Assembly: GCA_043808095.1 (NCBI GenBank)
Contig: JAZDFF010000001.1
Span: 1,628 to 65,627, forward strand
DNA: 64,000 nt
Direction: 5' to 3'
Source: Candidatus Omnitrophota bacterium
GTDB taxonomy: Bacteria; Omnitrophota; Gorgyraeia; JAZDFF01
This document shows positions 10,963 to 61,507 of this stretch, in pieces; positions within the stretch are counted from its first letter, which is position 1; every line of letters begins with the position of its first letter. Made by a program: the position numbers and the translations under genes. The notes below the pieces were generated by a model. That model ran no database searches. It had not been told where the DNA came from and saw nothing but the letters and a program-made list of their open reading frames with translations.

Positions 10963-11036
10963 TCCCGAATGTTGTTACTATATTAGTTATTCTTCGGGAT
11001 CCCGAAGCGATACCATAGTAGTTACTACATTCGGGA
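10963..11036. repeat. MITE-like palindromic element: TIR TCCCGAATG...CATTCGGGA with central CTTCGGGATCCCGAAG
   Basis: One of five copies (10963, 29818 composite, 30846, 37328, 45256); the whole unit can fold as a hairpin. Confidence 0.6.
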
Positions 11037-11077
11037 TAAACTGTTTTCTGGTTACTCCCGAGCGAAGCGAGGGGAAC

Positions 11078-11917
11078 ATGCCTTTATTTGGAAAGCCGAA
11101 ATATACCATAGTGCGGGTAAAGAAAAAGGATATACCAGACGGTCTTTGGATGAAGTGCCTGGGTTGTTCTGAATTATTATATAATAAAACCCTGGATGAA
11201 AATCTTAAGGTTTGTCCAAAGTGCAATTACCACTTTACTCTAGGCGCAAAAGAAAGAATAGATTTCTTGATTGATAAAGACACCTTTGTTGAATTTGATA
11301 AAGATATGCTTACGGGGGATCCTCTTGAATTTAGGGGCCCGAAGAGTTACAAGGAAAAATTAAAAAAAGACCAAGAGGAGACCGGAATAAACGAGGCGGT
11401 TATTACTGGCGAAGGGCTACTTAACGGCAAAAAGATTATTGTCAATGTTACCGACTCCAGGTTTATTATGGGCTCGATGGGAACAGTGGTGGGCGAAAAG
11501 ATTACCCGTGCGATTGAACGCGCAACTGAGGAGGATCTTCCATTAGTGATTATCTCCGGTTCTGGCGGCGGGGCAAGGATGTATGAGGGGATGCTTTCTC
11601 TTATGCAGATGGCCAAGACCTCAGCGGCGTTGAACCATCATCACAATAAAAGTTTAGTCTTTATATCAGTATTGACCAATCCTACAATGGCTGGAGTATT
11701 GGCTTCTTTTGCAGGCCTAGGGGATGTCATTATCGCCGAGCCAAAGGCATTAATCGGTTTTACCGGCCCACGGGTTATTGAACAGACTATTCATCAGAAA
11801 TTACCACCCAATTTCCAGACTTCCGAATTTATGTTGGCGCATGGGCTAATTGATATGATTGTTAACCGCAAAAGCTTGAAAGAAACCCTTATCCAATTAG
11901 TGGATTATCTGGGTTGA
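11078..11917 (+). CDS. accD: Acetyl-CoA carboxylase carboxyltransferase subunit beta
   Basis: N-terminal C4 zinc ribbon (CLGCSE...CPKCNYHF) followed by the carboxyltransferase domain (GSMGTVVGEKI). Confidence 0.9.
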   Translation: MPLFGKPKYTIVRVKKKDIPDGLWMKCLGCSELLYNKTLDENLKVCPKCNYHFTLGAKERIDFLIDKDTFVEFDKDMLTGDPLEFRGPKSYKEKLKKDQEETGINEAVITGEGLLNGKKIIVNVTDSRFIMGSMGTVVGEKITRAIERATEEDLPLVIISGSGGGARMYEGMLSLMQMAKTSAALNHHHNKSLVFISVLTNPTMAGVLASFAGLGDVIIAEPKALIGFTGPRVIEQTIHQKLPPNFQTSEFMLAHGLIDMIVNRKSLKETLIQLVDYLG

Positions 11918-12194
11918 TACATTCGACTTCGTGGTTCGACAGGCTCACCACTTCTGGAACCATCCCGAACGAAGTTGAGGGGCTCAGTATCAATCCTGAG
12001 CGAGCGAAACGAATCTAAGGATTGATTTTCTTAAAATAGTTGGTATAATATGAACTTACGTTTAAGGGATAGAAAGGTGTAGTAAGAGGTAGCAGGGGTA
12101 AGGAGGGGCAAAATTTAAATCCCTTACTAACCCATTCTAACCCATGCTGACCCTTCCTAATCCTTAAATCTTTTGTATCAACAAGTGAGGGGAT

Positions 12195-20034: not shown

Positions 20035-20212
20035 CAAATACGGATAGAGAATAAATTTTCTAGAAAACTACCAAGGGATATGAGCTAAGGCAGGGTTTAG
20101 GTTAAGTAATATAGGCTGTCACGAAATTCATTCCAACCTATGATTACAGTGATTTTAAATAAGATTCCAGTGATTATCTCGATGACATGCTTAATCGCCG
20201 TAATCTATTTTC

Positions 20213-20302
20213 TTCCCGCTTTACGGGATCCCGCTGGATATTTTCTATTGCGCGGGATAATCACCGTAATCAAGGGCGGCACTTTTGTGACGCCCTATTA
20301 AG
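20213..20302 (+). promoter_or_regulatory. Conserved ~90-nt leader element (copy 1), upstream of ugd
   Basis: ~90% identical to 52594-52687; contains the palindrome GCGGGATCCCGC and an AGGGCG...CGCCCT hairpin. Confidence 0.45.
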
Positions 20303-20326: not shown

Positions 20327-21634
20327 GTGAAAATTTCGGTTATAGGCACAGGTTATGTAGGCTTGGTTACAGGAACTTGTCTTGCGGAGTTAGGCAACCA
20401 GGTCATCTGCGTTGATAATGATAGAAATAAAATCGATAATTTAAAGAAGAAAATCGTACCCATTTATGAGCCCGGACTGGAGGACTTAATAAAAAGGAAT
20501 ACGGCAGAGCATAGGCTCTCATTTTCCACCAGCATCAAAGAGGCGGTAGAAAAAAGCGAAGTTATATTTATTGCCGTGGGCACGCCTTCAAAAGAAACTG
20601 GAGAAGCGGATTTAACTGGTATAGAAAGTGTTGCTTTGCAGATTGCAAAGGCAATGAAGTCTTATCGGCTAATTGTAGAAAAGTCTACTGTTCCGGTTGA
20701 AACCGGCTCCTGGGTAGAGCATACCATTAACGTAGGTATAAATAAAAAAATTAAATTTGATGTTGCTTCAAATCCGGAGTTTTTAAGAGAAGGCCAGGCC
20801 ATAAATGATTTTATGCATCCGGACAGGATTGTGATAGGAGTCAATACCCAGAAGGCAAGAGATACCCTCTTTAACCTGTACAAACCACTCGGTGTGCCCA
20901 TAGTAGTAACTGATATAAAATCGGCTGAGTTGATTAAACATGCCTCAAATTCTTTTCTTGCCACAAAGATATCTTTTATTAATGCTGTTTCGCAAATCTG
21001 TGAGTTGACGGGTGCTGATGTAAAGAAGGTAGCTGAAGGCATGGGCTTGGATAGCCGCATTGGTCGAGAATTTTTAAATGCCGGCATTGGTTACGGCGGT
21101 TCATGTTTTCCTAAAGACCTTGATGCCTTTATAAAGATATCAGAGAAATATGGTTATGATTTTCAGCTTTTGAAGGCAGTAAAAGAAATAAACGAAAAAC
21201 AAAGAGAGTTTTTTGTAAAAAAGATAAAAGATGCCATCTGGATATTAAAAGGCAAGGTTATTGGAGTATTAGGTATTTCTTTTAAACCCAATACCGACGA
21301 CATCAGGCAGTCACCGGCAATTGATATCATAAATAGACTGATAGAAGAAGGCGCCTCTGTCCAGGCCTTTGATCCGCAGGCTATGAAGAAATCCAGGGAT
21401 ATTTTAAAAAAGGTAAAATTTTGTAAAGACCCTTACGAGGCATCCCGTAATAGCGACTGTTTGCTTATTCTTACCGAATGGAGTGAGTTTAAGGAATTGG
21501 ATTTCAGGAAAATAAGAAAAATAATGAAACATCCCCTTATCATTGACGGCAGAAACATCTATGACCAAGATTTGTTAAAAAAATTTGGTTTTAGATATAT
21601 TTCTATAGGCAGGTCAAATAAAGCCACGACTTAG
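20327..21634 (+). CDS. ugd: UDP-glucose 6-dehydrogenase
   Basis: MKISVIGTGYVGLVTG Rossmann motif and catalytic GGSCFPKD; GTG start. Confidence 0.85.
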   Translation: MKISVIGTGYVGLVTGTCLAELGNQVICVDNDRNKIDNLKKKIVPIYEPGLEDLIKRNTAEHRLSFSTSIKEAVEKSEVIFIAVGTPSKETGEADLTGIESVALQIAKAMKSYRLIVEKSTVPVETGSWVEHTINVGINKKIKFDVASNPEFLREGQAINDFMHPDRIVIGVNTQKARDTLFNLYKPLGVPIVVTDIKSAELIKHASNSFLATKISFINAVSQICELTGADVKKVAEGMGLDSRIGREFLNAGIGYGGSCFPKDLDAFIKISEKYGYDFQLLKAVKEINEKQREFFVKKIKDAIWILKGKVIGVLGISFKPNTDDIRQSPAIDIINRLIEEGASVQAFDPQAMKKSRDILKKVKFCKDPYEASRNSDCLLILTEWSEFKELDFRKIRKIMKHPLIIDGRNIYDQDLLKKFGFRYISIGRSNKATT

Positions 21635-25012: not shown

Positions 25013-26295
25013 AACTAAAAATAAATAAAAAAGAGGCAAAGATTGCGGTAATCGGCCTAGGTTATGTCGGCCTGCCCTTAGCGGTTGAATATGCAAAAAG
25101 AGGATTTACCGTCTTCGGGATAGATAATGACAAGGATAGGATTAATAAAGCCAAGAATCTAGTGCCTTATATTCTGGATGTCCCGACAGAAGATATTAAA
25201 AATGTGCTGGATAAAAATAAATTATTTCCGACAACACAATTTAATAAATTAGGAATCTCGGACGTAGCTATTATCTGTGTCCCTACGCCATTAAAGAGGA
25301 AATACCAGCCGGACATTTCTTATATTATAAGCGCAGCTAAAGAAATTAAAAAATATATTCATAAAAATCAATTGGTAGTTTTAGAAAGTACCACCTATCC
25401 GGGCACTACCGAAGAAGTGATCTTGCCCTTACTTGAATCAAGCGGACTGAAATGCGGCAGAGATTTTCTCCTCGCTTTTTCGCCCGAAAGAATTGACCCC
25501 GGAAACGAAAAATTCCCGGTTTATAAGATTCCCAAGGTAGTCGGCGGCCTCACCCCAGAGGCTACAATATTGACTAAGTTGCTTTATGAGAACATCATAG
25601 AGAAAGTAGTCCCTGTTTCATCGACAAAGGTGGCTGAGACCGTAAAATTATTGGAAAATACCTTCCGCATCGTTAATATCGCCCTTATTAATGAGATAGC
25701 CATGATGGCCCATAAAATGAATATGGATATCTGGGAGATAATTGAAGCGGCCAGCACCAAGCCCTTTGGTTTCATGAGTTTTTATCCGGGTCCGGGCGTA
25801 GGGGGCCACTGCATACCAAAAGATCCACTGTACTTATACTGGAAGGCAAAACTGCACGGTTTTAAATCCCGTTTTATTAAATTGGCTTCGGATATAAACA
25901 ATGCCATGCCTGATTATGTTGTGTCAAGGGTATCCGCAGGCTTAAAAAAACGAGGCAAGAACCTGTCTTCGTCTAAGGTTTTAATTGTCGGCGTAACCTA
26001 TAAAAGAGATGTCAAGGATTTACGCAAGTCTCCAGGTATAGAAATTATCGATATCTTTAAGTCTATGCATGCGCATGTAGCTTATTACGACCCCCTGATC
26101 CCGTTTTTAAAGATCAATAATATTAATCTTAAGTCGGTAACACTAGATAAAAAGACACTCAAAAGCTTTGACTGCGTGGTTATTGTAACCGACCACAGTG
26201 ATATTAATTATCAGCTGATATCGGATAATTCCAAACTTATCTTTGATACCCGCAACGTATTTAAAAGACAAAACCCAAAGATTGAGAGGCTATAA
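24997..26295 (+). CDS. Nucleotide-sugar dehydrogenase (UDP-ManNAcA/UDP-GlcNAc dehydrogenase family)
   Basis: IAVIGLGYVGLPLA Rossmann motif and GGHCIPKDP catalytic Cys. Start placed at ATG 24997. Confidence 0.8.
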   Translation: MFEKLKLKINKKEAKIAVIGLGYVGLPLAVEYAKRGFTVFGIDNDKDRINKAKNLVPYILDVPTEDIKNVLDKNKLFPTTQFNKLGISDVAIICVPTPLKRKYQPDISYIISAAKEIKKYIHKNQLVVLESTTYPGTTEEVILPLLESSGLKCGRDFLLAFSPERIDPGNEKFPVYKIPKVVGGLTPEATILTKLLYENIIEKVVPVSSTKVAETVKLLENTFRIVNIALINEIAMMAHKMNMDIWEIIEAASTKPFGFMSFYPGPGVGGHCIPKDPLYLYWKAKLHGFKSRFIKLASDINNAMPDYVVSRVSAGLKKRGKNLSSSKVLIVGVTYKRDVKDLRKSPGIEIIDIFKSMHAHVAYYDPLIPFLKINNINLKSVTLDKKTLKSFDCVVIVTDHSDINYQLISDNSKLIFDTRNVFKRQNPKIERL

Positions 26296-26357
26296 TACAC
26301 AGATTAGCACAGATATCTGTGCTAATCTGTGTAGTAATTATTTAACTGGAGAAAAAT

Positions 26358-29135: not shown

Positions 29136-29741
29136 ATGAGACGACTAAATAAGAAGGCAATAAGTTTAGCCGAATTGGTAATTACTATAGCGATTATGGT
29201 CATCTTGGCAGTTATGGCCCTGATCCGGACCGGCTATAATGACACCTTAAAATTAAATGCCTGCGCCAGAAAGATTGCGGGAGATATTAGGTATGTCCAG
29301 CAGTTGGCAATGACCGAGTCTAAATCCAGTGTAAGTGCGAATCCCTATATTATGGATTTTAATCCTCCTTCTGCGTCTTGGGTTCCTGGCCATCCGAATT
29401 TACCTTTAGGCCAAAGCTATATGGTAGTAAGAAGTGGTCTCGCCGGTTATTTACAAGACCCCTACGCCAAAGAGGATTTAGTAATGGACTTTACAAAACA
29501 AGATACCTGCAAGGGTGTAAATTTTACAAACGTAACTCTTGGAACTTGTGGAACTTGTAAGTCTCTGCGGTTTAGTGACAATCTAGGTACGCCACTTTCG
29601 GCTAATTTAGTGGGATATTTTGGTTCCTGGGCATATGGGACTTATCCTCTAAGCGCAGCACCCCAGATTGCTATTTCTTACAAGGGTAAATTAGTTACAA
29701 TTTACATTACCCCAGAGACAGGCTTGGTGAGGATAGAGTGA
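29136..29741 (+). CDS. Prepilin-like protein with an atypical class-III signal
   Basis: The N-terminus is KKAISLAELVITIAIMVILAV, with A-I-S-L-A-E in place of the usual G-F-T-L-I-E. It has a hydrophobic helix and a Cys pair near the C-terminus. Confidence 0.5.
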   Translation: MRRLNKKAISLAELVITIAIMVILAVMALIRTGYNDTLKLNACARKIAGDIRYVQQLAMTESKSSVSANPYIMDFNPPSASWVPGHPNLPLGQSYMVVRSGLAGYLQDPYAKEDLVMDFTKQDTCKGVNFTNVTLGTCGTCKSLRFSDNLGTPLSANLVGYFGSWAYGTYPLSAAPQIAISYKGKLVTIYITPETGLVRIE

Positions 29742-29810
29742 TGCAATTTTTAAAAAGAAAAATTGCATTGATTACAGCGATTTTTAAAAAAGATTACAGT
29801 GATTAAAGAA

Positions 29811-30150
29811 ATGATTATCCCGAATGATGTTATTCTTTGTAGTGTCTCTTCGGGATCCCGTTCCGAATATAGCAAATGCTTTTGTATAGTTTCGGGATCC
29901 CGACGATTCGCTTCTATGAATACCTTCATTCGGGAAAGAATAACCTAAAAAGTTACTACATTCGGGACAGTGATAGAACCATATTTAATGTCCAATATCC
30001 AATAAATACCAATAATACCAATGAATGTCCAATTGCCAATTGGATAGTTGGGATTTGGGATTTTATTGGCACTTCGACTTTGCTCAGTGCCAATGGTGAG
30101 CATAGTCGAACCATTGGAGTTTGGTAGTTATTGGTAAATATTGGGATTTA
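29811..30150. repeat. Left direct repeat flanking the pilin/PilX-like locus: a composite of two MITE-like units plus a CCAAT/ATTGG-word palindrome
   Basis: 29811-29860 is identical to 37321-37380, and 29977-30062 is identical to 37430-37524. The left copy carries an extra 46-bp insert (30062-30108) from the 'acttcgactttgctcag' repeat family. Confidence 0.7.
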
Positions 30151-30287
30151 AAGAGTCATTGGGACATTGTCCCGCGTAGCGGGATTCCGCTTTCGTTTTA
30201 ATTAGATAGGCGGGAAAGAATTAGGAATTTATTCGGCATTAGTCATTAGGAATTCAACATTAACTTTTATTTTAAGAGGTGTGATAA

Positions 30288-30791: not shown

Positions 30792-30845
30792 TAATATAAA
30801 TGATAAATTTCCAATATCCAATAATACCAATGAATGTCCAATTTC

Positions 30846-30921
30846 TCCCGAATACAGTTACCCAAAGAAGTTATGCTTCGGGATCCCGAAGTTATACTTC
30901 GCAGAGATACTACATTCGGGA
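30846..30921. repeat. MITE-like palindromic element (copy)
   Basis: TCCCGAATA...GCTTCGGGATCCCGAAGT...CATTCGGGA. Confidence 0.6.
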
Positions 30922-31014
30922 CAATGACCAATTAGATAATTGAGATTTGGGATTTCATTGGGATTTGGTAGTTATTGGTAATTATTGGGATTTAAGTGTA
31001 AAGGGGTTGTCCAA

Positions 31015-37295: not shown

Positions 37296-37320
37296 AAAAA
37301 TGATTCCAGCGATTAAGAAG

Positions 37321-37570
37321 ATGATTATCCCGAATGATGTTATTCTTTGTAGTGTCTCTTCGGGATCCCGATGTAATTCTTAAGAAGTTACTACATTCGG
37401 GACAGCGATAAAAGATACGATTACAGCAAGAGAACCATATTTAATATCCAATGTCCAATATCCAATAAATACCAATAATACCAATGAATGTCCAATTGCC
37501 AATTGGATAGTTGGGATTTGGAGAATTTATTGGAGTTTGGTATTTATTGGTAATTATTGGGATTTAAAGA
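37321..37570. repeat. Right direct repeat flanking the pilin/PilX-like locus
   Basis: See the 29811-30150 entry; ends in the ...GGGATTTAAAGAGT-ATG junction that also precedes paralog 1. Confidence 0.7.
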
Positions 37571-37572
37571 GT

Positions 37573-42631: not shown

Positions 42632-43007
42632 GCTTCATAACTAAAATAAAAAATAAATTATAGGGCGTCATAAAAATTCCGCCCTTGATTGCAGAGGTTA
42701 CAAAATCTGATTATGCGGATTTCCGCCTTTGGCGAAAAATATTCCGAAGAAACAATCTTTGTAATCATTAGGCTAAAACGATACTTCGACTTTGTCCTGC
42801 TTCGACAGGCTCAGTATTCGCCCTGAGCGAGCGAAATCCCTCGACTGCGCTCGGGATGGTTCGAGGGGTGGTGAGCCCTTCGATTACGCTCAGGGCAAAT
42901 GGTGAGCAAAGTCGAACCAGAGCAAGTCGAACCACGAGTCGAAAGGCTCAGTATTCGTCCTGAGTGAAATCGAAGGACGAATTTTATGACAGCCTAAATA
43001 AATTATT

Positions 43008-43364: not shown

Positions 43365-43504
43365 TAAGCACATCCCGATGTAACGTCGGGATAAGTGCGA
43401 ATTTAACCCCCGTCGCTTTGCTTCGCAAAGCGAAGCAGCGGGGGTAAGTTCGGACAAATAACTTATGTCGCTCTACAGGCTCCATAAGTTATGTCCTCAC
43501 TTAT

Positions 43505-45175: not shown

Positions 45176-45255
45176 TATATGAATCACGAATAAACACAAA
45201 TTTCACACTAATTAACACGAATATTAAAATTTACAAATTCGTGTCTATTCGTGTG

Positions 45256-45329
45256 TCCCGAATGAAGCAATTGATTGTGTTTAGCTTCGGGATCCCGAAG
45301 TGATTCTTAAGAAGTCACTACATTCGGGA
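45256..45329. repeat. MITE-like palindromic element (copy), upstream of recJ
   Basis: TCCCGAATG...CTTCGGGATCCCGAAG...CATTCGGGA. Confidence 0.6.
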
Positions 45330-45345
45330 TAATTCGTGAGAATTA

Positions 45346-47046
45346 GTGTACAATAAAATGTATAAAAACTGGCAGGTTGCTCGGGTTGATGCCCATAAAC
45401 AAACCGAATTAAGCAAAGAATTAGGCATATCCAGGATTCTGGCCTCTCTTTTAATTAATCGGGGCCTTATTTCTAAAACTACGGCCTCAAGTTTTTTGAA
45501 CCCGCATCTGGCGGATTTGGTCGACCCTTTTAAATTGAAGGATATGGCCAATGCCGTCAAAAGAATAAAAAAAGCCCAGAAAAATAAAGAGAAGGTCTTG
45601 GTTATCGCCGATTATGATGTGGACGGACTGACCAGTTGTGCGGTATTAAAATCCGCCCTAAAGAGATTGAACCTTGAGGTTTTTACTTATTTGCCCCACA
45701 GAATTTCCGAGGGCTATGGAATAAGTAAGAAGGCCCTCGAGTACTGCCTAAAGATAAAGGCGAGCCTAGTATTTACTGTTGACTGCGGCATTACTGGCCA
45801 CAAAGAGATTGGATTTTTAAATAAACACAATATTGACACCATTATTATCGACCATCATCAGCCCAAGGGCAGGTATTTACCCGAGGCCTATGCCATCATT
45901 GACCCGAAACGTCCTGATTGCGCTTATCCTTACAAAGAGCTTGCCGGAGTGGGCCTTGTCTATAAAGTGGTTTGGGCATTTTTAGGACATCATGCAAAAG
46001 ATTTCTTCGATCTGGTTGCATTAGGCACTGTGGCTGATATTGTGCCTTTAGACGGAGAAAACCGCATCTTCGTAAAAGAGGGGCTAAGGCATATTAATTT
46101 TCCAAAGCGTCCGGGGATAAAGGCGCTTCTTGAGGTCTGCGGCCTAAAGGGCAAAATCATCCGAACGGAGTATATAAATTTTATCCTAGGGCCAAGGATT
46201 AATGCCTCGGGCAGGATGCGTACTGCCGAGGATTCTTTAGAATTGCTTTTAACCGAATCTGAAGAAGAGGCCTTCTGCCTAGCTAAGAACTTAGAAAGTG
46301 ATAACCGCACGCGCCAGACGGTTGAAAGCCGGGTGCTTCAGGAAGCCCTAACCAAGATTGATAAAGAAATCAATTTTAAAGACCACTATGTGATAGTACT
46401 TAGTTCCGAGGGTTGGCATCAGGGCGTCCTGGGGATTGTGGCCTCAAAGGTTGTGGACAGGTTTTATCGGCCGGCAATAATCATTTCTTTGGAAGATAAT
46501 ATGGGTAAGGGTTCTGCCCGTTCTATCCATTCTTTTCACCTATTTGAAGCGCTCCATAAGTGTTCAAAATATCTGGAGGGTTTTGGCGGGCATAAATATG
46601 CCGCAGGCCTTACCATAACGCGGGATAATATCGATACATTTAAGAACGAAATGAACCGTATTGCCAAAGACCTCTTAAGACCCGAAGACCTTATGCCGGC
46701 AATAGATATTGATGCAGAAATTCGCTTAAGCGACTTGAATAAGGATTTAATTCTGGAACTGGAGAAATTAGAGCCTTTTGGAAAAGGCAATCCTGAACCA
46801 ATATTTTCTGTAATAAACCTTTATCTTAGAGGAAGACCGCTTATACTGGGCAGGGAAACGCTAAAATTCTGGGTCAGTGACGGACAGTTATTTTATCCGG
46901 CAATAGGTTTCGGGATGGCAGGATGCCTAGATTTGATTTGCCAGGCACAAAGCCTTGATCTCTGCTTTAGCCTACGGCTTGATTCTTGGGAAGGGGAGGA
47001 ATCTCTTATTTTAGAGGTAAAGGATATCCGGTTCAACAACGCCTAA
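45346..47046 (+). CDS. recJ: Single-stranded-DNA-specific exonuclease RecJ
   Basis: DHH motifs (IADYDVDGLTS, DHH), DHHA1 domain and a C-terminal OB-like region. Confidence 0.9.
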   Translation: MYNKMYKNWQVARVDAHKQTELSKELGISRILASLLINRGLISKTTASSFLNPHLADLVDPFKLKDMANAVKRIKKAQKNKEKVLVIADYDVDGLTSCAVLKSALKRLNLEVFTYLPHRISEGYGISKKALEYCLKIKASLVFTVDCGITGHKEIGFLNKHNIDTIIIDHHQPKGRYLPEAYAIIDPKRPDCAYPYKELAGVGLVYKVVWAFLGHHAKDFFDLVALGTVADIVPLDGENRIFVKEGLRHINFPKRPGIKALLEVCGLKGKIIRTEYINFILGPRINASGRMRTAEDSLELLLTESEEEAFCLAKNLESDNRTRQTVESRVLQEALTKIDKEINFKDHYVIVLSSEGWHQGVLGIVASKVVDRFYRPAIIISLEDNMGKGSARSIHSFHLFEALHKCSKYLEGFGGHKYAAGLTITRDNIDTFKNEMNRIAKDLLRPEDLMPAIDIDAEIRLSDLNKDLILELEKLEPFGKGNPEPIFSVINLYLRGRPLILGRETLKFWVSDGQLFYPAIGFGMAGCLDLICQAQSLDLCFSLRLDSWEGEESLILEVKDIRFNNA

Positions 47047-47280: not shown

Positions 47281-47622
47281 ATTGACTCCTTTAATGAATA
47301 ATATCACAGATGATTACAGATCTACCTTTAAATTTCAGATTTTCGCAGATGGGTACAGATAAGTTAATCAGTGTCCATCTTGTAGTTTTTCCCGCTAAGC
47401 GGGATCCCGCTGGAATCTTTTATTTTGGTACGGGATAATCTGTGCTAATCTGTGGATAAATATAACTAAGTTCGGATTTTATTTGAGTATACTTGAAAAC
47501 AGATTTTTGTCAAGGTAAAATGAGTGAGGGCATAAGTTATGTCGCCAAAGTCAATAAACAGTTCCATAACTTATGTGCTTTATTGGAAAAGGGCGGTATA
47601 ATCGAATTATAGGAGAGCTCAA

Positions 47623-52082: not shown

Positions 52083-52320
52083 TTTATACTCCGCGGCCTG
52101 AAAACCGCGCCCTTTAGGGCGCGGATAAGATGTGGCCGCTTGAGTATTCCGCCCAAGGAACCCCGGGCTTTAGCCCGGGTGGGCTCCATTTTTTGAGAGT
52201 TAAAACATTCTGGCTTTCAAGAGGTTAGTGAAATTTTTTCAAATGAAGCCCAGACTTATGGAGCCTGCTTGACACCAAACAGGCGATTGCGAACATAAGT
52301 TGTGTGCTCATTAAAATACC

Positions 52321-52465: not shown

Positions 52466-52593
52466 AGGTAAGCGAGGAAGCGCTTTCTTTTTAAAACAGC
52501 CCTTCACAAAACTAGTTCAGGGCTGTTGATTGCAGTGATTTCAAAAAAGATTACAGCGATTTATCGTCGAGCATTAATCTTTGTAATCTGATT

Positions 52594-52687
52594 TTCCCGC
52601 TTTGCGGGATCCCGCTGGAAATTTTCTATTGTGCGGGATAATCTCTGTAATCAAGGGCGAAACGATTTTTGTGAAGCCCTATTTAAG
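52594..52687 (+). promoter_or_regulatory. Conserved ~90-nt leader element (copy 2) upstream of the 1956-aa surface protein
   Basis: ~90% identical to 20213-20302, with the same GCGGGATCCCGC palindrome and AGGGC...GCCCT hairpin just before the RBS. Confidence 0.45.
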
Positions 52688-52700
52688 GGAGGATAAAAAG

Positions 52701-55700
52701 ATGATGGGAATAAAAAAATTAATAAGTGTATTAATTTTAGGTTGCGTATTAATATTATTGAATAATCCTTCCCTTTTAGCAGAAGAGGGTCAATGGAAGT
52801 CCTTGGATGAAGGAATTCCTTCGCTAACTGCTCCCCAGGCTTCAGTACTTAAGTCTACTGATTCAACTGTCCATTTAAGGATACAGGTCCCTGGTTTTGA
52901 AGTTAAGCAAAATGAAGAACAGGGCGTAGTCTATCAACAAATCCGTCTTCCTCAGGCAAGCTTGCTTCCTGAAATAGGCAAACCGATGCTTCCCCGGCTT
53001 ATCAGGATTATCGCCGTGCCTAAAGAATGTAATCTTTCCGATATCAAGTTAGAATTTTCTCCTACCAAAATCCAGACCTTGGAAAACTACTTAGTTTATC
53101 CTCTGCCTGATTTAGACGATAAAAAAGATATCTTTGTTAAAGACGAACTTTTCTATGAAAAAGACGTTTTTTATCCCGAACAGGTGGTAAAGGTTGAATC
53201 TATAGGCCTGATGCGCGACCAGAAAATTCTTAAGATTCAAATCTGTCCTATACAATATAATCCTAAGACAAAACAACTCAAGGTATATAAAGACCTGATA
53301 ATCAAGGTAAACTTTCCTTCTGGTATAGTGAGTTCATCTACGGGAGTAGGACCTCTTGAACATGTGGCTAACCTGGCTCTATTAAATTATGAATCCAGGC
53401 CTCAAGAAGAGCCAGAAGAAGGCGGTAAATCAGGGAATGTTATCTATCCCACAAATTTGAAAACCGGTACAAACAATGCTGATTATATTATCATTGCTGC
53501 TCCTCTGCTTTGGCAGGACAGGGATACCAACGGATTGGTTACTTTTGCTAACCATCGCGCTACCTATAATAACTGGAATGTGGCAGTGGTAAATAGAGAT
53601 GATATCTATAATCAATTTAGCGGCACCACTGATGATGACAAGATTAAGGCCTTTATTACCTATGCCTATAATAATGTCGCTAACCATTGGCATGCGCCTC
53701 GTATGGGCGATGACCATACTGGATTTGTGCTTTTAATGGGAGACGCGCGTTCAGCTGCCGGTACAGGCCATCTACCCACACATATCTCTATTCTTGTTGA
53801 CCCTATTAAATATGAACGTATTGCTACTGACCACTGGTATGCCTGTATAAATGATGATGACGGCAGCGGTATGGTTGATGATAATGACCGCATGGCTGAT
53901 CTTTTTATTGGCCGGTTTTGCACAGGAGGCGATGACTGGGCCCAGAGAGTTCTGGATAAGACCCGCTTCTTTGATATTGCCGGAATTCCTAGCCCCAATT
54001 GGAAAGGAAAGATTGGCCTTTGGTGCGGCTATGGAAGCCAAGATGCCAACAGGATCAGCGAGCTTAGAGATACAATCTATCCTCATATTGAACAGCTGGC
54101 CGGCACTAATTCTTTTTTTGAGGTAAGCGATAAGGAATTTAGTACAGATCATACTAATTTAAATGATTTTAAGGATGACTTTAAGAACTATTTTAATTTA
54201 GGCAGAGGGATTGTTATTGACAATAGTCATGGTGACTACAATCTGTGGCAGTGGTCCAAAAATTTGTCTACGTTTGTAAACTTCGCTACTGATGATGTAG
54301 ACACTCTGAATAATGGTAGCAAAACTCCTCTGGTTCTGAGTTTTTCTTGTAGCACAGCGAGGTTTGACTATATCGGCAAAGGAGGTCAAGGCGTTGATCC
54401 CAATTTTGAGTCTTTAGCTGAAAGGTTTACCGAGATAGCTAACAATAAAGGTGCGGTAGCCTTTTGGGGGGCAACACGCGATACTAATTACCATGGAGAT
54501 TTTGAGTATACTGATACTATGATTCCGGCAGTCTTAGAATACGGCCTAAGCAATCTGGGTCAGGCTATTCTTTATACCAAACTCACCTGCTCTACAGTTT
54601 ATAATGGGGATATCATATTTAATCTGGTGGGTGATCCGGGTCTAGGGCTCTATGGCACTGTCCCAGGTTTTATCACTGACCTGCAGATTACCAGTGATAA
54701 TATCCAGACCGCTTCGGTTGGTTCTGATATTAGAATAACCGCTAAAGTAGAGAATATGACTGTTGTAGCAGCAACAAACGTCTGGGTGCGCTTCTATGAC
54801 GGCGACCCTACCAATGGTGGCATTCAGATAGGCTCTGACCAATTAATTAGCTCAATTCCCAGGTTTGGCAGTCAGACCGCAGAGGTCCTCTGGATTAATC
54901 CCTCCCAGACAGCGCATACCATATATGTGGTGGTTGATCCTGATAATACCATCACTGAATTTAATGAGGAAAATAATAAGGCCTCTACGGTAGTTCTCCT
55001 GGGATTTTCAGTCACTCCGGGTTATTATATTGACTCTTCGGCAATAGTAGCGGATGTAAATAATGACGGTGATAAGGAGATAATCGTAGGCTGTAATGAC
55101 TACAAAATTTATGTTTGGCAATCAAACGCTCAAGCATTACCCGGCTGGCCTATTTCAACAGGTGGTTCTGTGGAATCTTCTCCTGCTGTAGCTGATCTAG
55201 ACGGAGATGGAGATTTGGAGATAATTTTCAGTAGTAATAATGGTTATGTCTATGCCTGGCACCATAATGATGGACCTGATGCTGGCGATGAAGCAGATCC
55301 GGTTGCGGGTTGGCCAATTTCTATAGGCGGTCAAGTCCGTGCCACTCCAGTTGTTTTTGACTTAGACAATGATGGTGATTTAGAGATTATTGCTGCCTCA
55401 ACCAATGGCAAGGTCTATGCCTGGCATCACAATGGCCAGCCTTTTGCTTCTTGGCCAGGAGGTTATTTACAGGCAGCAGGAGCAATTTATTCTTCACCCG
55501 CAGTGGGTGATATTGATGGACAAGGCAGTGTAGAGATAGTAGTAGGCAGCGACGATGGCAAGGTCTATGCCTGGCATGCTCATAATGGCCAGGCCTTGAC
55601 TAATTGGCCAGTTGTAACCAACCCAACCTTACCCATACGTTCTTCACCCAGTTTAGCGGATTTAGACCGCGACGGTTTTCTCGATGTGGTAGTTGGTTCC

Positions 55701-58571
55701 ACCAATGGTAGGATGTACGCCTTTAAGTATGACGGCAGCCCTGTTACCGGTTGGTCAGGCGGAGTAGCAACCGCTGGTGCAATATATTCTTCACCCTCCA
55801 TCGCGGATATTAATAAAGACGGTGAATTAGAGGTAGTGGTGGGTTCTTATGATAACAAGGTCTATGCCTTTAAGTATGATGGAAGTCTTCTTTCTGGTAA
55901 TTGGCCAGTAACTACTGGCAATGATATCTATTCCTCGCCCTCATTATCTGACGTAAATGGTGATGGTAATATTGATGTGGTAGTGGGTTCTTATGACCAG
56001 CATCTTTATGTCTTGGATAAAAATGGCGGAGTTGTTGGTTCTCCTTTTACAACCTCAGGCAGAATTAGGTCGTCACCTGCAATCGTAGATATGGATGGTG
56101 ATGAACGGCCTGAGATATTAGTGGGTTCTTATGAGCAGTTGCATGTGTTTAGGGCAGGCGGCAGTGCAGTTGAACCCGAAGATATGCCTTGGTCGCAATT
56201 CCGCAAAGAGCCAAACAGGAAGGCAGTCTATAGTCGGCTCGCCCAAAGCCAGATTACCAACAGCCCAATGGATTATGCCACAATTCAAAAGGCCATATAC
56301 GCAGCTCAACCCGAAGAAACCATCTTAGTGCCAGAAGGTACATATTATGAAAATATCTCTTTCAAAAGCAAATCTATTACTTTAAAGGGTACAGAGGGTC
56401 CAGGAGGAGTGAAGAAGAGCATCTTAGATGGAGGTGGTGTTGGTTCGGTAGTTTATATGAGTTATAGCGAAGATTATCAGACAGGACCCTTTAATCCCGT
56501 CCTAGAAGGATTTAAGATTACCCATGGCTCAGGATATATGGGAGATTTGGGAGGGGGGGTTCTTATAAGTGGTAACTATCCACCTAATTCAAGACCGCAG
56601 GTCCTCCACAATTATATAACAGAAAACGAAGCTGATTATGGTGGTGGTATTGACCTTGGGGGGAGTTCGGCAATTATTAAACAAAATATTATCAGCAACA
56701 ACACAGCTCATATCGCTGGAGCAGCAATTTGTGCTATTGGGTATAGTATTAGCAACGAATCGCCGCTCATTACCAATAATGTAATCTATGCCAATACCGC
56801 GCCTGATTATAATCCTGATGAATGGGTTAGTGGTGGCATTATTTTTATCACCCAATCTGGAATCGACCCCGTAGATACACCGACATATTATCCTATAATT
56901 GCTAATAATACCATTACCTTAAATGTGGAGTGGTATGTTGGTAGAGGTCCAGCCGTGGTTATTAATAATCCTTTCCCCAACTGGGTGGATGCCAAGTTAG
57001 TCAATAATATCATTGTGAACAATTCCAAGGGGATTTGTTATTATTCCTCAAATCAGCCTTCAGGAGAACCTTCTCCTGAATCAATTGCCTATAATGATGT
57101 GTATAACAACACCGGCGGAAATTATGTGGGGCTTTCTGACAGAACTGGCATACAAGGCAATATCTCTGTTGAACCTAAGTTTAGAAACGGACTCTACTTA
57201 AGAGATCATATCTCTCCTTGTATTGATGCTGGTATTCCTGATCCCGATGGTAACCTAAATAATAATGAGGGCCAGCTTTGGGATTGGTCCCTTGAGCCTG
57301 ATTTTTCTGCTGGCCATATCAATATGGGCGCCTTTGGCAATACTTCCATAGCAGAACTTAGCTGCCATGTTCCTTATTTTCAGGACGATTCTTCCTGGGG
57401 TTATCCTATTAATAGTTATTATTGGGAGTGGCCGGTAGATCAGCCCGTTAATCTCACTGTTCATGCCGTTGATTGTGATGGCGATACGCTTAATATTAAT
57501 TTCGGGTTTTTGCCTCCAGGCCTATCGGCAACAGTTACACCGGGTAATCCTGCTTACCTTGTTATTACAGGCACACCCAATGTTACGGGAACTTATTCCA
57601 CCACATTTATTGTCCAGGATAACAGCCAGTATTTATTCTCTAAGACAGTGCCAGTCACCTTTAACATATTTAAATATGAGCCTGCGTCGCCATCATGTCC
57701 TTATTTATATCTGTGGAATGGCTCTGATTATGTCTTTGAGAATGACCTCTTCCCATCTGGAAATCCCAAGGAATACACTGATTATTATCTCTTGATGAAG
57801 GAATTAATACCAAAGGATGAGGTCTATTCTTTAAAGATAAAGGAGGAATTAGAGGAGACTTCTCATATAGACAAGGTATCGCTTTTACAGATAGACCATC
57901 CTGAAGGAGTAAAGATTGCTCCTACCCTGGAAGGTAAATTATATACCTATAAAGAACCTCTTACAGCTGCCGCAAATGTCGTCAATAGCCAGGGCGAGGA
58001 TATTACCGAGTTAATTTCTACCGGCGCTGATAATAAAGAGTATTTTGGCAGGCAGGGAGAGGAGATTATGCTTAGGTTTGCGAAAAACGGCCTAAGAGAT
58101 GAAACCAGACTTATCCTGAGTTCTGACCTGCCTAGGCCAAAACCCAATTATGCCAAATCTATCCATCTTCAGTTCAAGGACAAAAAAGGCCAGTGGCAGA
58201 ATCTCGTAGTCCTGCATCCCCATGAATACTGGGATATCTGGGCAGTGGATTTATCACCTTACCTTGAGGATTTAGGCAAAGATGAGGATTTGGAGATTAA
58301 GATCTTCTTTACTCAAGACCACAAGTTAGACTTCGTGGCCTTAGATACATCGCAACAAGCCCCCATTGTCGTAACCGAGCTTCCGCTTTTAAAGGCTACG
58401 CACTCTAAAGATAACGATATACGCTTAAAGTTGGAAACCTCTGATAATGACTACACCCGGACAATCAAAGGAGACTACATTGATTTAGAATTCCCATATC
58501 TAAGTAAGCCTACTCAAAAAAGAAGCTTTATCTTTGTCAGTGAGGGTTGGTATAGGCAAAACAAGAAATAG
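52701..58571 (+). CDS. Giant secreted multidomain protein: C25 (gingipain)-like cysteine peptidase + FG-GAP/VCBS beta-propeller + right-handed parallel beta-helix + C-terminal domain
   Basis: Signal peptide MMGIKKLISVLILGCVLILL; RBS AAGGGAGG. The candidate catalytic dyad (NSHGD...SFSCSTARFDY) resembles the Kgp/Rgp C-x-TAQFDY region. There are at least six FG-GAP-like repeats (DLDGDGDLEII...YVYAWHHN). Beta-helix repeats run from about 56280 to 57300. Confidence 0.75.
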   Translation: MMGIKKLISVLILGCVLILLNNPSLLAEEGQWKSLDEGIPSLTAPQASVLKSTDSTVHLRIQVPGFEVKQNEEQGVVYQQIRLPQASLLPEIGKPMLPRLIRIIAVPKECNLSDIKLEFSPTKIQTLENYLVYPLPDLDDKKDIFVKDELFYEKDVFYPEQVVKVESIGLMRDQKILKIQICPIQYNPKTKQLKVYKDLIIKVNFPSGIVSSSTGVGPLEHVANLALLNYESRPQEEPEEGGKSGNVIYPTNLKTGTNNADYIIIAAPLLWQDRDTNGLVTFANHRATYNNWNVAVVNRDDIYNQFSGTTDDDKIKAFITYAYNNVANHWHAPRMGDDHTGFVLLMGDARSAAGTGHLPTHISILVDPIKYERIATDHWYACINDDDGSGMVDDNDRMADLFIGRFCTGGDDWAQRVLDKTRFFDIAGIPSPNWKGKIGLWCGYGSQDANRISELRDTIYPHIEQLAGTNSFFEVSDKEFSTDHTNLNDFKDDFKNYFNLGRGIVIDNSHGDYNLWQWSKNLSTFVNFATDDVDTLNNGSKTPLVLSFSCSTARFDYIGKGGQGVDPNFESLAERFTEIANNKGAVAFWGATRDTNYHGDFEYTDTMIPAVLEYGLSNLGQAILYTKLTCSTVYNGDIIFNLVGDPGLGLYGTVPGFITDLQITSDNIQTASVGSDIRITAKVENMTVVAATNVWVRFYDGDPTNGGIQIGSDQLISSIPRFGSQTAEVLWINPSQTAHTIYVVVDPDNTITEFNEENNKASTVVLLGFSVTPGYYIDSSAIVADVNNDGDKEIIVGCNDYKIYVWQSNAQALPGWPISTGGSVESSPAVADLDGDGDLEIIFSSNNGYVYAWHHNDGPDAGDEADPVAGWPISIGGQVRATPVVFDLDNDGDLEIIAASTNGKVYAWHHNGQPFASWPGGYLQAAGAIYSSPAVGDIDGQGSVEIVVGSDDGKVYAWHAHNGQALTNWPVVTNPTLPIRSSPSLADLDRDGFLDVVVGSTNGRMYAFKYDGSPVTGWSGGVATAGAIYSSPSIADINKDGELEVVVGSYDNKVYAFKYDGSLLSGNWPVTTGNDIYSSPSLSDVNGDGNIDVVVGSYDQHLYVLDKNGGVVGSPFTTSGRIRSSPAIVDMDGDERPEILVGSYEQLHVFRAGGSAVEPEDMPWSQFRKEPNRKAVYSRLAQSQITNSPMDYATIQKAIYAAQPEETILVPEGTYYENISFKSKSITLKGTEGPGGVKKSILDGGGVGSVVYMSYSEDYQTGPFNPVLEGFKITHGSGYMGDLGGGVLISGNYPPNSRPQVLHNYITENEADYGGGIDLGGSSAIIKQNIISNNTAHIAGAAICAIGYSISNESPLITNNVIYANTAPDYNPDEWVSGGIIFITQSGIDPVDTPTYYPIIANNTITLNVEWYVGRGPAVVINNPFPNWVDAKLVNNIIVNNSKGICYYSSNQPSGEPSPESIAYNDVYNNTGGNYVGLSDRTGIQGNISVEPKFRNGLYLRDHISPCIDAGIPDPDGNLNNNEGQLWDWSLEPDFSAGHINMGAFGNTSIAELSCHVPYFQDDSSWGYPINSYYWEWPVDQPVNLTVHAVDCDGDTLNINFGFLPPGLSATVTPGNPAYLVITGTPNVTGTYSTTFIVQDNSQYLFSKTVPVTFNIFKYEPASPSCPYLYLWNGSDYVFENDLFPSGNPKEYTDYYLLMKELIPKDEVYSLKIKEELEETSHIDKVSLLQIDHPEGVKIAPTLEGKLYTYKEPLTAAANVVNSQGEDITELISTGADNKEYFGRQGEEIMLRFAKNGLRDETRLILSSDLPRPKPNYAKSIHLQFKDKKGQWQNLVVLHPHEYWDIWAVDLSPYLEDLGKDEDLEIKIFFTQDHKLDFVALDTSQQAPIVVTELPLLKATHSKDNDIRLKLETSDNDYTRTIKGDYIDLEFPYLSKPTQKRSFIFVSEGWYRQNKK

Positions 58572-58902: not shown

Positions 58903-59169
58903 TTGGCTTTGTCTAAACCCGATAAAACTAAGATCATCAGCAAGTTTAAATTGCATACCCAAGACACGGGTTCTGCCCCGGTCCAGATTGCGATCTTAAC
59001 CGAGAGAATAAGTTTGCTCTCCGAGCATTTTAAAACCAATAAGAAAGACCATCATTCCCGCAGAGGACTATTATGTATGGTCGGTAAACGTAAACGCCTT
59101 CTAAGCTATTTAAAAAAAGAAGCACCCAAGGTTTATGAGGATATAGCAGGAAAATTAAATTTAAAATAA
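58903..59169 (+). CDS. rpsO: 30S ribosomal protein S15
   Basis: ...[54 protein letters not shown] matches the S15 consensus. TTG start at 58903 with an upstream AAAGGGGG; the track's longer ORF reads through upstream palindromes. Confidence 0.85.
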
Positions 59170-59181
59170 AGGTATAACTAT

Positions 59182-61272
59182 ATGGCAATCGAACGTGTTG
59201 AATTAAAATTCGGACAAGAGACCCTAATTTTGGAGACGGGAAAACTCGCCCGTCAGGCAAATGGTGCGGTTTGCGTTACTTTTGGCGGGACCGTGGTTTT
59301 GGTCTCAGCCTGTGTCTCAAAGACAGTAAGGCTGGAGACTAATTTCCTGCCTTTGACCGTCGAATATCAGGAAAAGACCTATGCCGCAGGAAAGATTCCC
59401 GGCGGATTCTTTAAGAGAGAGGGTCGTCCTTCGGAAAATGAGATTTTAACTGCAAGACTTATTGACCGTCCCATAAGACCTCTTTTTCCTAAAGGCTTTG
59501 TCAATGAGGTTCAGATAATGGGTCTAGTTTTGTCCAGTGACGGGGAAAACGATCCCGACATCCTAGCGGTAATCGGCGCCTCCGCAGCCTTATCCATATC
59601 AGATATCCCCTTTGAGGGGCCTTTGGGAATCTGCCGCGTCGGCCACCTAAACGGCGAATTTATCCTAAATCCTACATATAAACAGGTAGAGGAAGGCAAA
59701 TTTGATGTTGTGGTAGCAGGTACCAAAGACGGGGTGATAATGCTTGAGGCAAGGGCTAATGAGGCCAAAGAGGACCTGGTCTTTGAGGCGATAAACTTCG
59801 GCTATAATAATCTCAAGTCAGTGATTTCTTGTCAGGAAGAGCTCCTTTGCACTTCGGCTGAGACTAAGATGCAGGTTAAGCTTAAGACATTTGACCCTGA
59901 GCTTATTAGTATTATTGAATCGAAATATAATGATCGGCTTGATTCTATTTTTCAGATTAAAGATAATATCTCAAGGCAAGAGGCCAACAGCCTACTGGCT
60001 GAGGAATTATTTGATTCCTTAAATACTGAATCCGCCAAGTATGCCAAAAAGGATATCATAGAAACGATTGAAGAAATCGAAGGCCATAAATTACGATCGT
60101 TTATTTTATCGCATTCTAAAAGAGTAGACGGCCGCGCCCTGGATGAGATCCGGCCGATTAATTGCTCCATCGGAGTGCTGCCGCGTACACACGGCTCAGG
60201 TATTTTTACCCGGGGTTCTACTCAGAGCCTCTGTGTAACTACTTTAGGAAGCGCCTCCGATGAACAGATGATTGAGGCCTTGGAAGGTGAGACCTCCAAA
60301 TCTTTTATGCTCCATTACAGTTTTCCGCCTTTTAGCGTTGGCGAAATTAAGCCGGTAAGAGGCCCGGGAAGGCGCGAGATCGGCCACGGCGCACTCGCAG
60401 AGAAGTCTTTGCGCGCGGTGATGCCTTCTAAGGAAGAATTCCCTTATACGGTAAGAGTAGTTTCCGAAATTTTAGAATCAAACGGTTCCTCAAGCATGGC
60501 CACGGTCTGCGCAGGGACGCTGGCGCTTTTGGATGCAGGCGTGCCTATAAAGGCACCGGTTGCCGGAGTGGCCTTAGGCCTGATTAAGGAACAAAATAAA
60601 GAGATCATATTGACCGACATCGCCGGGCTTGAAGATCATTTCGGGGATATGGATTTTAAGGCTGCCGGCACAAAAGACGGCATTACTGCTGTGCAACTCG
60701 ACCTTAAGATAAGAGGCATTAGCCTCAACCTGATAAAAGAGGCCCTTATTAGGTCACGGCAAGGCAGACTTTTTATTCTCGATAAAATGGCGCAGGTGAT
60801 TAATAAACCCAGAGAGTCGCTATCGAAATATGCCCCGCGCATCCATATCCTGAAGATTAATCCCGAGCGCATCGGAGAGCTCATAGGGCCGGGCGGTAAG
60901 ACCATAAAAAAGATTATTAATACTACCGGAGTAAGCGTAGATATCGAGGACGACGGCAGCGTAATGGTTGCTTCAACCGATGCCAAGGCCTCGGAAGAAG
61001 CGATTTCGATGATTAAGGCCCTTACCGAAGATGCCGAGGTAGGAAAGATTTATAAAGGACGCATCAAGAAGATTACCAATTTCGGAGCGTTCTGTGAGAT
61101 TATGCCGGGAAAAGAAGGTCTTATTCATGTCTCGGAATTATCCGATAAGTTTGTGAAAAATGTCGAAGACGTGGTTAAGCTTGGCGATGAGGTGAAGGTA
61201 AAGCTAGTCAATATCGATGAGATGGGCAGGCTTAATTTAAGCATTAAACAAGCTCCGCCAGAGAGTCAATAA
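59182..61272 (+). CDS. pnp: Polynucleotide phosphorylase
   Basis: Two RNase PH domains, KH domain and C-terminal S1 domain; rpsO-pnp synteny. Confidence 0.97.
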   Translation: MAIERVELKFGQETLILETGKLARQANGAVCVTFGGTVVLVSACVSKTVRLETNFLPLTVEYQEKTYAAGKIPGGFFKREGRPSENEILTARLIDRPIRPLFPKGFVNEVQIMGLVLSSDGENDPDILAVIGASAALSISDIPFEGPLGICRVGHLNGEFILNPTYKQVEEGKFDVVVAGTKDGVIMLEARANEAKEDLVFEAINFGYNNLKSVISCQEELLCTSAETKMQVKLKTFDPELISIIESKYNDRLDSIFQIKDNISRQEANSLLAEELFDSLNTESAKYAKKDIIETIEEIEGHKLRSFILSHSKRVDGRALDEIRPINCSIGVLPRTHGSGIFTRGSTQSLCVTTLGSASDEQMIEALEGETSKSFMLHYSFPPFSVGEIKPVRGPGRREIGHGALAEKSLRAVMPSKEEFPYTVRVVSEILESNGSSSMATVCAGTLALLDAGVPIKAPVAGVALGLIKEQNKEIILTDIAGLEDHFGDMDFKAAGTKDGITAVQLDLKIRGISLNLIKEALIRSRQGRLFILDKMAQVINKPRESLSKYAPRIHILKINPERIGELIGPGGKTIKKIINTTGVSVDIEDDGSVMVASTDAKASEEAISMIKALTEDAEVGKIYKGRIKKITNFGAFCEIMPGKEGLIHVSELSDKFVKNVEDVVKLGDEVKVKLVNIDEMGRLNLSIKQAPPESQ

Positions 61273-61507
61273 GTCTTGATATATGCTGGCGGCAAGAACC
61301 CAGCCAGTACAGGCCATTCTTATATTGCCTTGTCAAATAAAGATCACTTTGATTCCAGTGATTAAAATGTAGATTCCAGAGATTATTTTCCATCGGAAAC
61401 ACTGGAATCTTTTTGCTATAGGCTGGATCCCGCTTTGGTTAAAGGTGAAAGCGGGAAAAATCGCTGTAATCAATTTAGCAATCACTGTAATCATTCTTTA
61501 AAAATAA

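Follow-up and report, generated by a model that had tools for sequence, protein, structure and literature searches.

A palindromic 10-mer in Omnitrophota DNA is the joint of paired hairpin modules in probable small mobile repeats

Introduction

The frequent recurrence of a palindromic 10-mer, CGGGATCCCG, in one stretch of bacterial DNA raises the question of what kind of sequence it belongs to and how it came to be there so often. The stretch (hereafter the window) comprises 64,000 nucleotides (nt) of contig JAZDFF010000001.1 from a metagenome-assembled genome (MAG) of Candidatus Omnitrophota; its UDP-glucose dehydrogenase (20327-21634) matches a protein of such a MAG with 100% identity, and the next relatives of this enzyme are also from Omnitrophota. 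These bacteria are uncultured and mostly ultra-small, and their genome dynamics have been little studied. A preliminary description of the window took the 10-mer to be massively over-represented and exclusively intergenic. We found that the 10-mer is the joint of two abutted hairpin modules, and our results suggest that the elements built from these modules are probably small palindromic mobile repeats of the non-autonomous kind, belonging to one superfamily whose members are spread over an Omnitrophota clade.

Results

The 10-mer joins two hairpin modules

Over-representation of the 10-mer was confirmed: the window contains nine perfect copies against 0.04 expected from dinucleotide-preserving shuffles, none of 100 shuffles reaching nine. 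Five of the coordinates given previously were right, whereas four were off by 1-10 nt and are corrected here (29892 to 29893, 30889 to 30879, 37371 to 37361, and 52610 to 52605). The near-variants reported alongside them were recovered as well, GCGGGATTCCGC at 30179-30190 and GGATCCCGC at 61425. All nine copies lie within elements of two types, A and B, which are the two sequence contexts already distinguished (cores resembling miniature inverted-repeat transposable elements, or MITEs, and elements then called gene leaders). In both types, the 10-mer arises where two TCCCG…CGGGA modules meet, the 3′ foot of the first abutting the 5′ foot of the second (TCCCG…CGGGA:TCCCG…CGGGA, with the colon marking the joint), and no free-standing site was found in the window. 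Outside the elements, the hexamer GGATCC is present eight times against ~10 expected for the whole window by an estimate from base composition, so there is no sign that this hexamer is avoided.

Type A elements are imperfect palindromes of ~75 nt, TCCCGAATG…CTTCGGGA:TCCCGAAG…CATTCGGGA, with six copies in the window, one of them nested in another (Table 1). Using an exact pattern with 23 specified bases, we found type A in at least 120 metagenome contigs (median GC 0.40) which, among the matches listed, come from ~40 datasets, among them some from freshwater sediments, lakes, and groundwater. The consensus spans 75 bp, or 25 codons (TCCCGAATG-N22-CTTCGGGA:TCCCGAAG-N20-CTACATTCGGGA). Among 56-63 distinct copies of 75 nt, only the blocks TCCCGAATG, CTTCGGGA, TCCCGAAG, and CTACATTCGGGA were near-invariant. 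These blocks are four heptamers, TCCCGAA or TTCGGGA, in alternating orientation; two form the ends, where TCCCGAATGnAG and CTnCATTCGGGA constitute terminal inverted repeats, and two lie back-to-back and form the 10-mer. Identity reached ~97% in the heptamer blocks and ~50% in the interiors, the former being inflated by the selection of the sample through exact match at 23 of the 37 block positions; the left end TCCCGAATG was >90% conserved though the search pattern did not demand it. A broad pattern applied to a genome collection (TCCCGN{4,34}CGGGATCCCG) was too loose, yielding chance matches in high-GC genomes, and among its matches listed only L038 and L090 were faintly similar. In the viral contigs of IMG/VR, we found no match to type A and three loose type B-like matches.

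Type B elements consist of a short hairpin (TCCCG-loop-CGGGA) abutting a longer one (TCCCGC-N~22-GCGGGA); the window contains three copies and two decayed ones. The same core is common to further families, namely TCCCGCC…GGCGGGA:TCCCGCC…GGCGGGA and pairs of TCCCGAT…ATCGGGA, and hybrid elements were found in which half of a type A element and half of an element of another family meet exactly at CGGGA:TCCCG. In all of the sequence searched, we counted ~143 doublets and 44 isolated modules, of which ~7 would be expected by chance.

Elements occupy different sites in related genomes and insert precisely

The positions of the elements were compared with those in L122, a relative that is syntenic with the window over 18.5-39.8 kb at 70-75% nucleotide identity (78% protein identity for UDP-glucose dehydrogenase and 64% for the 759-aa protein upstream of it). 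This check, suggested at the outset, placed the elements at different sites: L122 carries three copies of CGGGATCCCG, all located in intergenic gaps that in the window are short and lack the motif, and the window copies are missing from L122. The type A copy at 37328-37402 is absent from the orthologous site, and where the window has a type B copy ahead of the UDP-glucose dehydrogenase gene, L122 has a gap of 14 nt. L122 further possesses a type B unit with GATTACAG-type arms (7368-7487) that is 77-80% identical to the window units at 20141-20272 and 52526-52653 (80% for the latter) and lies at a non-orthologous site. This unit is thus better conserved than coding DNA despite its different locus.

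Three comparisons between filled and empty sites (holB, L242 with L177, and the nested copy of the window) revealed precise insertion, each of 75 bp and without target-site duplication. The empty site in holB (L243, L244) reads …CAGTTTGTTT^CTTTAAAG…, and in L137 the 75 nt TCCCGAAT…ATTCGGGA stand exactly at the caret, between flanks that are ~93% identical. L242 and L177 differ by a 75-nt copy within an orthologous type A copy, at CTT^CGGGATCCCG. The nested copy of the window (29861-29935), which was recognized by a profile made only from metagenomic copies, has the same insertion position read on the other strand: once it is removed from the composite at 29818-29967, the remaining 43 and 32 nt rejoin as a perfect 75-nt type A element, with no bases duplicated at the junction, CGGGATCCCG^AAG. 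The insertion sites seen, GTTT^C and CTT^CGGGA, indicate a weakly defined target; a TTR flank is favored at both type A ends, with T in 71% of copies at position -2. A fourth indel, between L159 and L205, measures ~190 nt and comprises a core with its flanking ACGCAGAT arrays.

The proposal that the 10-mer or its edge acts as a rearrangement junction received support from the two independent nested insertions at CTT^CGGGATCCCG, from the point at which the hybrids join their halves, and from a 76-nt duplication that ends right after the 10-mer. The two copies of this direct repeat bound a ~7.5-kb segment that is missing from L122. We observed that positions 29136-37700 as a whole are absent there, the NTP-transferase gene of L122 running straight into the PALP gene; in the window, this region has pilin-like (N_methyl) genes along with genes for a 23S-rRNA-IVP protein and for three proteins of 530-560 aa of unknown function. 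A transposon bounded by type A copies was considered for 29136-37700 and rejected, as no transposase or integrase domain was present among the open reading frames (ORFs) scanned there.

Copies inside genes

Exclusively intergenic placement of the 10-mer was found to hold in the window, where no copy lies in a credible gene. Two mechanically called ORFs do overlap copies. The first, 52602-58571, begins with TTG, and an ATG at ~52701 following a GGGAGG ribosome-binding site is the likely real start of this C25-peptidase gene; the second, 29876-30127 (83 aa), is made of repeat sequence and has no Pfam match. A profile built from 92 metagenomic copies detected no decayed type A copies inside window genes. 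For the family, in contrast, the claim does not stand: other contigs contain in-frame genic copies, which restricts exclusive intergenic placement to a local observation.

By crude ORF calls, 17 of the 105 full type A copies (~16%) are located inside long ORFs, and the modal length of 75 nt is found in 14 of these 17 as well as in 56 of the 88 intergenic copies. Seven copies in six gene families were confirmed to be in frame, each adding ~25 codons (Table 1). Decayed versions of the holB insert are present in other orthologues of that gene (P0126, P0139, P0132). Elements also contribute gene ends: the C-terminal residues and the stop codon of PolA (L217) come from an element, and in L122 (11506-11578) the start codon of TrpA and its first six residues, MKTTFG, fall in the right arm of a decayed type A copy, an extension that the TrpA of the window does not have (compared region 38901-39005). 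All three reading frames are used (SRM…LRDPE…HSG, xPN…SGSRS…TFG, and YPEC…SGSRR…FIR). Selection for stop-free frames was considered and set aside, since such frames are in modest excess (an average of 2.57 of 6 open, and 2.1-2.2 for controls). A structural model of HolB presents the insert (residues 222-246) as a coil between two helices; pLDDT is <50 across residues 197-309, too low for the model to be used.

Motif arrays and other repeats

Nearly every intergenic region contains arrays of short motifs, direct and inverted, that are phased at ~10-11 nt, and type A cores are usually located in the middle of such arrays. The motifs include GATTACAGYGATT/AATCNCTGTAATC, CACAGATTAGCACAGAT, CCAATA…/…TTGGG, ACACGAAT/ATTCGTG, and CTGGTTACT. 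One core with its arrays (30846-30921) is near-identical to positions 6700-6900 of L176, where the neighboring genes differ. Both flanks contained direct repeats of at least 8 nt in 20% of copies, the figure for cross-element controls being 1%. As a general rule, target-site duplication was rejected as their origin; they are parts of the phased arrays and are offset by 0-11 nt. We also observed type A copies inside tandem heptamer arrays within genes, CTGGTAA in recG (L150, ~1190-1290) and AGTAACC in a gene for a Wzy-type ligase (L240, ~1820-1920); with the core taken out, each array is continuous again. Relative to the RecG structure (PDB 1gm5), the insert measures ~30 aa rather than 25, so core and array appear to have arrived in these genes as one piece.

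Two further observations concern repeats of other kinds. A third, unrelated palindromic family (CCTTCGAYT..GCTCAGG…CCTGAGC..TCGAAGG) is present in the window at 42809-42976 and 30070-30115, in L122 at 2930-3000, and in L176 at 9700-9790. Downstream of an AddA-like helicase-nuclease gene, the GC-rich region 52083-52200 contains several stable hairpins (ccgcggcc…gcgccctttagggcgc…cccgggctttagcccggg) and has no Rfam match.

Table 1. Copies of the 10-mer, elements, modules, repeats, and motif arrays of the window, followed by type A copies confirmed in frame in genes of other contigs
Feature	Location	Strand	Basis or remark
CGGGATCCCG, start coordinates	10995, 20224, 29851, 29893, 30879, 37361, 45288, 47400, 52605		
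Type A, 74 nt, TCCCGAATG…CTTCGGGATCCCGAAG…CATTCGGGA	10963..11036	.	nhmmer E=4e-20; RNA/DNA fold z=-5.3; flanked by a 421-aa gene and the acetyl-CoA carboxylase beta-subunit gene
Type B core, TCCCG-CTTTA-CGGGA + TCCCGC-N22-GCGGGA	20214..20257	+	Whole unit with GATTACAG-type arms, 20141-20272
76-nt direct repeat, first copy (flank and left half-element), ending exactly after CGGGATCCCG	29786..29861	+	Repeat comparison
Outer type A copy, left 43 nt, ending with CGGGATCCCG, split by nested insertion	29818..29860	.	Profile
Inner type A copy, 75 nt, inserted in outer copy at CGGGATCCCG^AAG, no duplicated bases	29861..29935	.	Profile
Outer type A copy, right 32 nt	29936..29967	.	Profile
Decayed type B-like pair, TCCCGC-GTA-GCGGGA:TTCCGC…GGCGGGAA	30170..30216	+	Sequence and fold
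Type A, 76 nt, centered in CCAAT-type inverted motif arrays	30846..30921	.	Profile
76-nt direct repeat, second copy	37296..37371	+	Repeat comparison
Type A, 75 nt, upstream of PALP (tryptophan synthase beta-like) gene	37328..37402	.	Profile
Isolated short module TCCCGATGTAACGTCGGGA, downstream of rsfS	43373..43391	.	Module search
Type A, 74 nt, between argS and recJ genes	45256..45329	.	Profile
Type B core, upstream of gene for 266-aa protein of unknown function	47390..47435	+	Module comparison
Type B core, upstream of C25-peptidase/FG-GAP gene	52595..52638	+	Whole unit 52526-52653
Single module TCCCGCTTT…AAAGCGGGA, preceded by GGA (half of 10-mer), upstream of ftsK	61425..61456	+	Sequence and fold
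Motif arrays	9281-9334, 20141-20180, 26293-26336, 29770-29810, 29990-30150, 30800-30990		
Motif arrays (continued)	37455-37560, 38900-38990, 45200-45354, 52526-52560, 61355-61500		
RecG	L150		PDB 1gm5 alignment splits exactly at the 25-aa insert, between two well-aligned blocks
DNA polymerase III delta′ (HolB)	L137, L142		Same codon in both; 90%, 89%, and 79% identical orthologues without the 25 aa
UvrA	L146		UvrA_inter domain interrupted
TrpC (IGPS)	L199		IGPS domain interrupted
ODP-lactamase-family (flavodiiron-like) protein	L203		Domain interrupted
GvpL/F	L136		Domain interrupted

Discussion

Mobile repeats and their possible mobilizing enzyme

These results favor the earlier suggestion that the 10-mer is the core of small mobile palindromic repeats, and we consider it probable that it is the joint in a superfamily of such repeats. 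The heptamers would then be recognized and cleaved by a trans-acting enzyme, probably a dimer, that makes no staggered cuts. The most likely kind would be one acting on folded single-stranded or cruciform DNA, with an HUH/Y1 transposase (of the IS200/IS605 type or a REP-associated tyrosine transposase, RAYT) or a site-specific recombinase as candidates. An HUH/Y1 enzyme would fit because of the lack of target duplication and the hairpin architecture, and the 10-mer would be over-represented because the mobilizable unit is the doublet.

We searched for such an enzyme with phmmer, using approximate RAYT and IS608 TnpA query sequences. One RAYT-like Y1 gene was identified in 0.8 Mb (L176, 10132-10815; Pfam Y1_Tnp, 4e-14), with HFH and RYIHLNP motifs. 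Its homologue in L245 (61-750), annotated as 'RayT', is 90% identical, and other homologues are at most 46% identical. In both contigs, the gene is flanked on either side by ~150-nt arrays of GATATCAG/CTGATATC, and GTGCCAGACAC/GTGTCAGACAC stand next to it. This gene may have the motif arrays as its cognate partners instead of the TCCCG…CGGGA modules.

Several points weigh against mobile repeats as the explanation. The mobilizing enzyme was not identified: as a candidate, the RAYT-like gene gained no support, since in L176 and L245 it is flanked by GATATCAG arrays and TCCCG…CGGGA modules are lacking there, and the 20 window ORFs scanned, which are fewer than half, yielded no transposase, longer elements with the same ends not having been sought. 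The strong conservation of the blocks, part of which reflects how the sample was selected, extends to possibly old copies (holB, in lineages ~60% identical) and could reflect a host function. Finally, the flanking direct repeats of about one copy in five and the arrays that seemingly arrived with the cores in the RecG and Wzy-type ligase genes imply that the moving unit sometimes exceeds 75 bp, and duplication is possible in those cases.

A bolder proposal, which we regard as rather improbable, is that the 75-bp doublets move by a mechanism that would be new for bacterial repeats. A symmetric element would be cut exactly at its hairpin feet, pasted without staggered cuts, and perhaps excised as precisely; it occupies the same holB codon repeatedly in lineages ~60% identical and targets itself at CTT^CGGGATCCCG. 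If this were true, the elements would reversibly produce 25-codon inserts in essential proteins and would nucleate the phased arrays that fill Omnitrophota intergenic regions. The driver would be an enzyme unrelated to RAYT/IS200, or host recombination or repair acting on cruciforms.

Alternative explanations

The rival that survives best, though we judge it unlikely, is that the heptamers are sites of a dimeric DNA-binding protein of the host (nucleoid-associated, chromosome-organizing, or regulatory), with binding under selection and the copies spreading mainly by recombination and duplication. Several features of the elements are consistent with this. The sequence blocks are kept without structural covariation, and they are kept between genomes whose coding DNA is 70-75% identical. 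The 14 nt at the center, TTCGGGATCCCGAA, form a perfect palindrome, a distance of 30-31 nt, or about three helical turns, separates outer from inner heptamers, and the cores lie within the phased motif arrays. However, a host binding site does not account well for exact 75-bp insertions into coding sequence and into other copies, nor for element positions that differ between syntenic genomes. The intragenic copies P0126, P0139, and P0132 are decaying, and the elements have no consistent placement relative to promoters.

We consider a role at the RNA level, as transcript-stabilizing hairpins, terminators, or 5′ leader/attenuator structures, to be very unlikely. Predicted folds are indeed much more stable than shuffled controls (in most type A copies, z is -4 to -7), every window copy has genes of the same direction on its two sides, and the type B subfamily of the window follows the direction of the genes in 4 of 4 copies (three in the window and one in L122). 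In addition, the stem extensions of short isolated modules are complementary by eye (GA/TC, GC/GC, and GAC/GTC). We note that all ~50 credible genes of the window are on the + strand, with positive GC skew throughout, an unusually strict co-orientation over 64 kb. The folds themselves, however, are not maintained by compensatory change, a possibility that was rejected: the two arms of a given element match each other no better than arms drawn from separate elements do, and across 56 type A copies we detected no covariation for either fold, paired cells making up 70.6% in the long hairpin (72.7% after shuffling) and 58.3% in the two-hairpin fold (59.5% after shuffling). Type A is about equally frequent in both orientations relative to transcription, and relatives of type B occur in both orientations and also with the order of the short and long hairpins swapped. 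Elements are missing upstream of orthologous genes and present inside ORFs, and only one weak terminator-like pattern overlaps a copy (47398). Searches of the window against Rfam at gathering thresholds gave no match, and the window contains no tRNA.

The same evidence bears on type B, which had been described as a gene-leader element. This reading failed: the copy upstream of the dehydrogenase gene has no counterpart in syntenic L122, a near-identical copy stands at a non-orthologous site of that genome, relatives are found in both orientations relative to genes, and promoter-like sites were identified on either side of the element, one of them (47493-47521) downstream of the copy at 47390-47435.

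The least probable explanation, in which the enrichment follows passively from the recent amplification of one repeat or from local duplication and the 10-mer has no significance of its own, would agree with the location of nine of nine copies inside repeat elements and with the identical 50-nt half of one window pair (due to the 76-nt duplication), but it is already largely refuted, because the question of a single recent amplification is answered in the negative by the divergent interiors beside a near-invariant 10-mer and end blocks, by a core common to several families and hybrids, and by the spread over the ~40 datasets and over genomes only ~60-78% identical at the protein level.

Implications

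Mobile palindromic repeats thus remain the explanation that we favor, and they matter in several ways. A 25-codon in-frame repeat in RecG, UvrA, DNA polymerase III delta′, and TrpC extends the concept of 'selfish DNA inside genes', classically associated with Rickettsia, to uncultured environmental bacteria of an unrelated phylum. Clean filled and empty sites without duplication, together with self-targeting at a defined position, offer handles for finding the mobilizing enzyme. The repeats likely complicate the assembly of MAGs, and they generate spurious ORFs (29876-30127) and altered start codons (TrpA of L122). They could also serve as strain markers.

Comparison with known systems

We found no description in the literature of this 75-bp element or of interspersed repeats in Omnitrophota. 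Classical bacterial MITEs are moved by DDE transposases and leave target-site duplications. They include the Correia, ERIC, and Nezha elements and are short and non-autonomous, with terminal inverted repeats and occasional in-frame ORF fusions (PMC10969869). The Omnitrophota element resembles them in its terminal inverted repeats and differs in the lack of target duplication in all three filled/empty comparisons.

Elements of the IS200/IS605 group move by the 'peel and paste' activity of a Y1 HUH enzyme; their two ends are asymmetric, and a 4-5-nt target guides the cleavage, which falls at some distance from the hairpin foot. The palindrome-associated elements of this group share with the Omnitrophota repeats the absence of target duplication, hairpins at both ends, and, in principle, the possibility of precise excision. 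In contrast, the Omnitrophota ends are symmetric and located exactly at the hairpin foot, the flank preference is limited to TTR, and no tnpA gene with matching ends was found in the 0.8 Mb searched. The small dispersed repeats (SDRs) of Nostoc and other cyanobacteria, as reportedly described by Elhai et al. in 2008, are hairpin repeats of 21-27 nt with precise insertion, nesting, tandem heptamer arrays, and no known transposase. If so, they would be similar to the Omnitrophota repeats in being very small hairpin repeats with all these habits, and different in their length, their cyanobacterial hosts, and their unrelated sequences.

By analogy, and with no claim of relatedness, the closest systems would be the Rickettsia palindromic elements (RPEs) in behavior and doublets of repetitive extragenic palindromic sequences (REP doublets, which comprise REPINs and BIMEs and are mobilized by RAYT transposases) in architecture. 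RPEs are small palindromic repeats found between genes and in frame in unrelated housekeeping genes, to which they add a short peptide, and their mobilizing enzyme is unknown (PMC10969869). The Omnitrophota repeats are likewise both intergenic and in frame in unrelated genes, with frames kept open. RPEs are ~100-150 bp long, occur in Rickettsia and other alphaproteobacteria, and are not known to be related in sequence, whereas the Omnitrophota unit measures exactly 75 bp and consists of two abutted TCCCG…CGGGA modules, with a lower in-gene fraction in our sample (by the crude ORF calls given above). The units of REPINs are imperfect palindromes of ~37 nt that occur mainly as inverted doublets; the doublets can form one long hairpin or a two-hairpin 'clover', and REPINs are highly over-represented and present across a clade (PMC3116915, PMC3337134). 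The Omnitrophota units differ from REPINs in that no spacer separates them, that no RAYT flanked by the modules was found in 0.8 Mb, and that their copies are not limited to extragenic space; they resemble REPINs in that they form hairpins and that doublets are more than three times as frequent as singlets.

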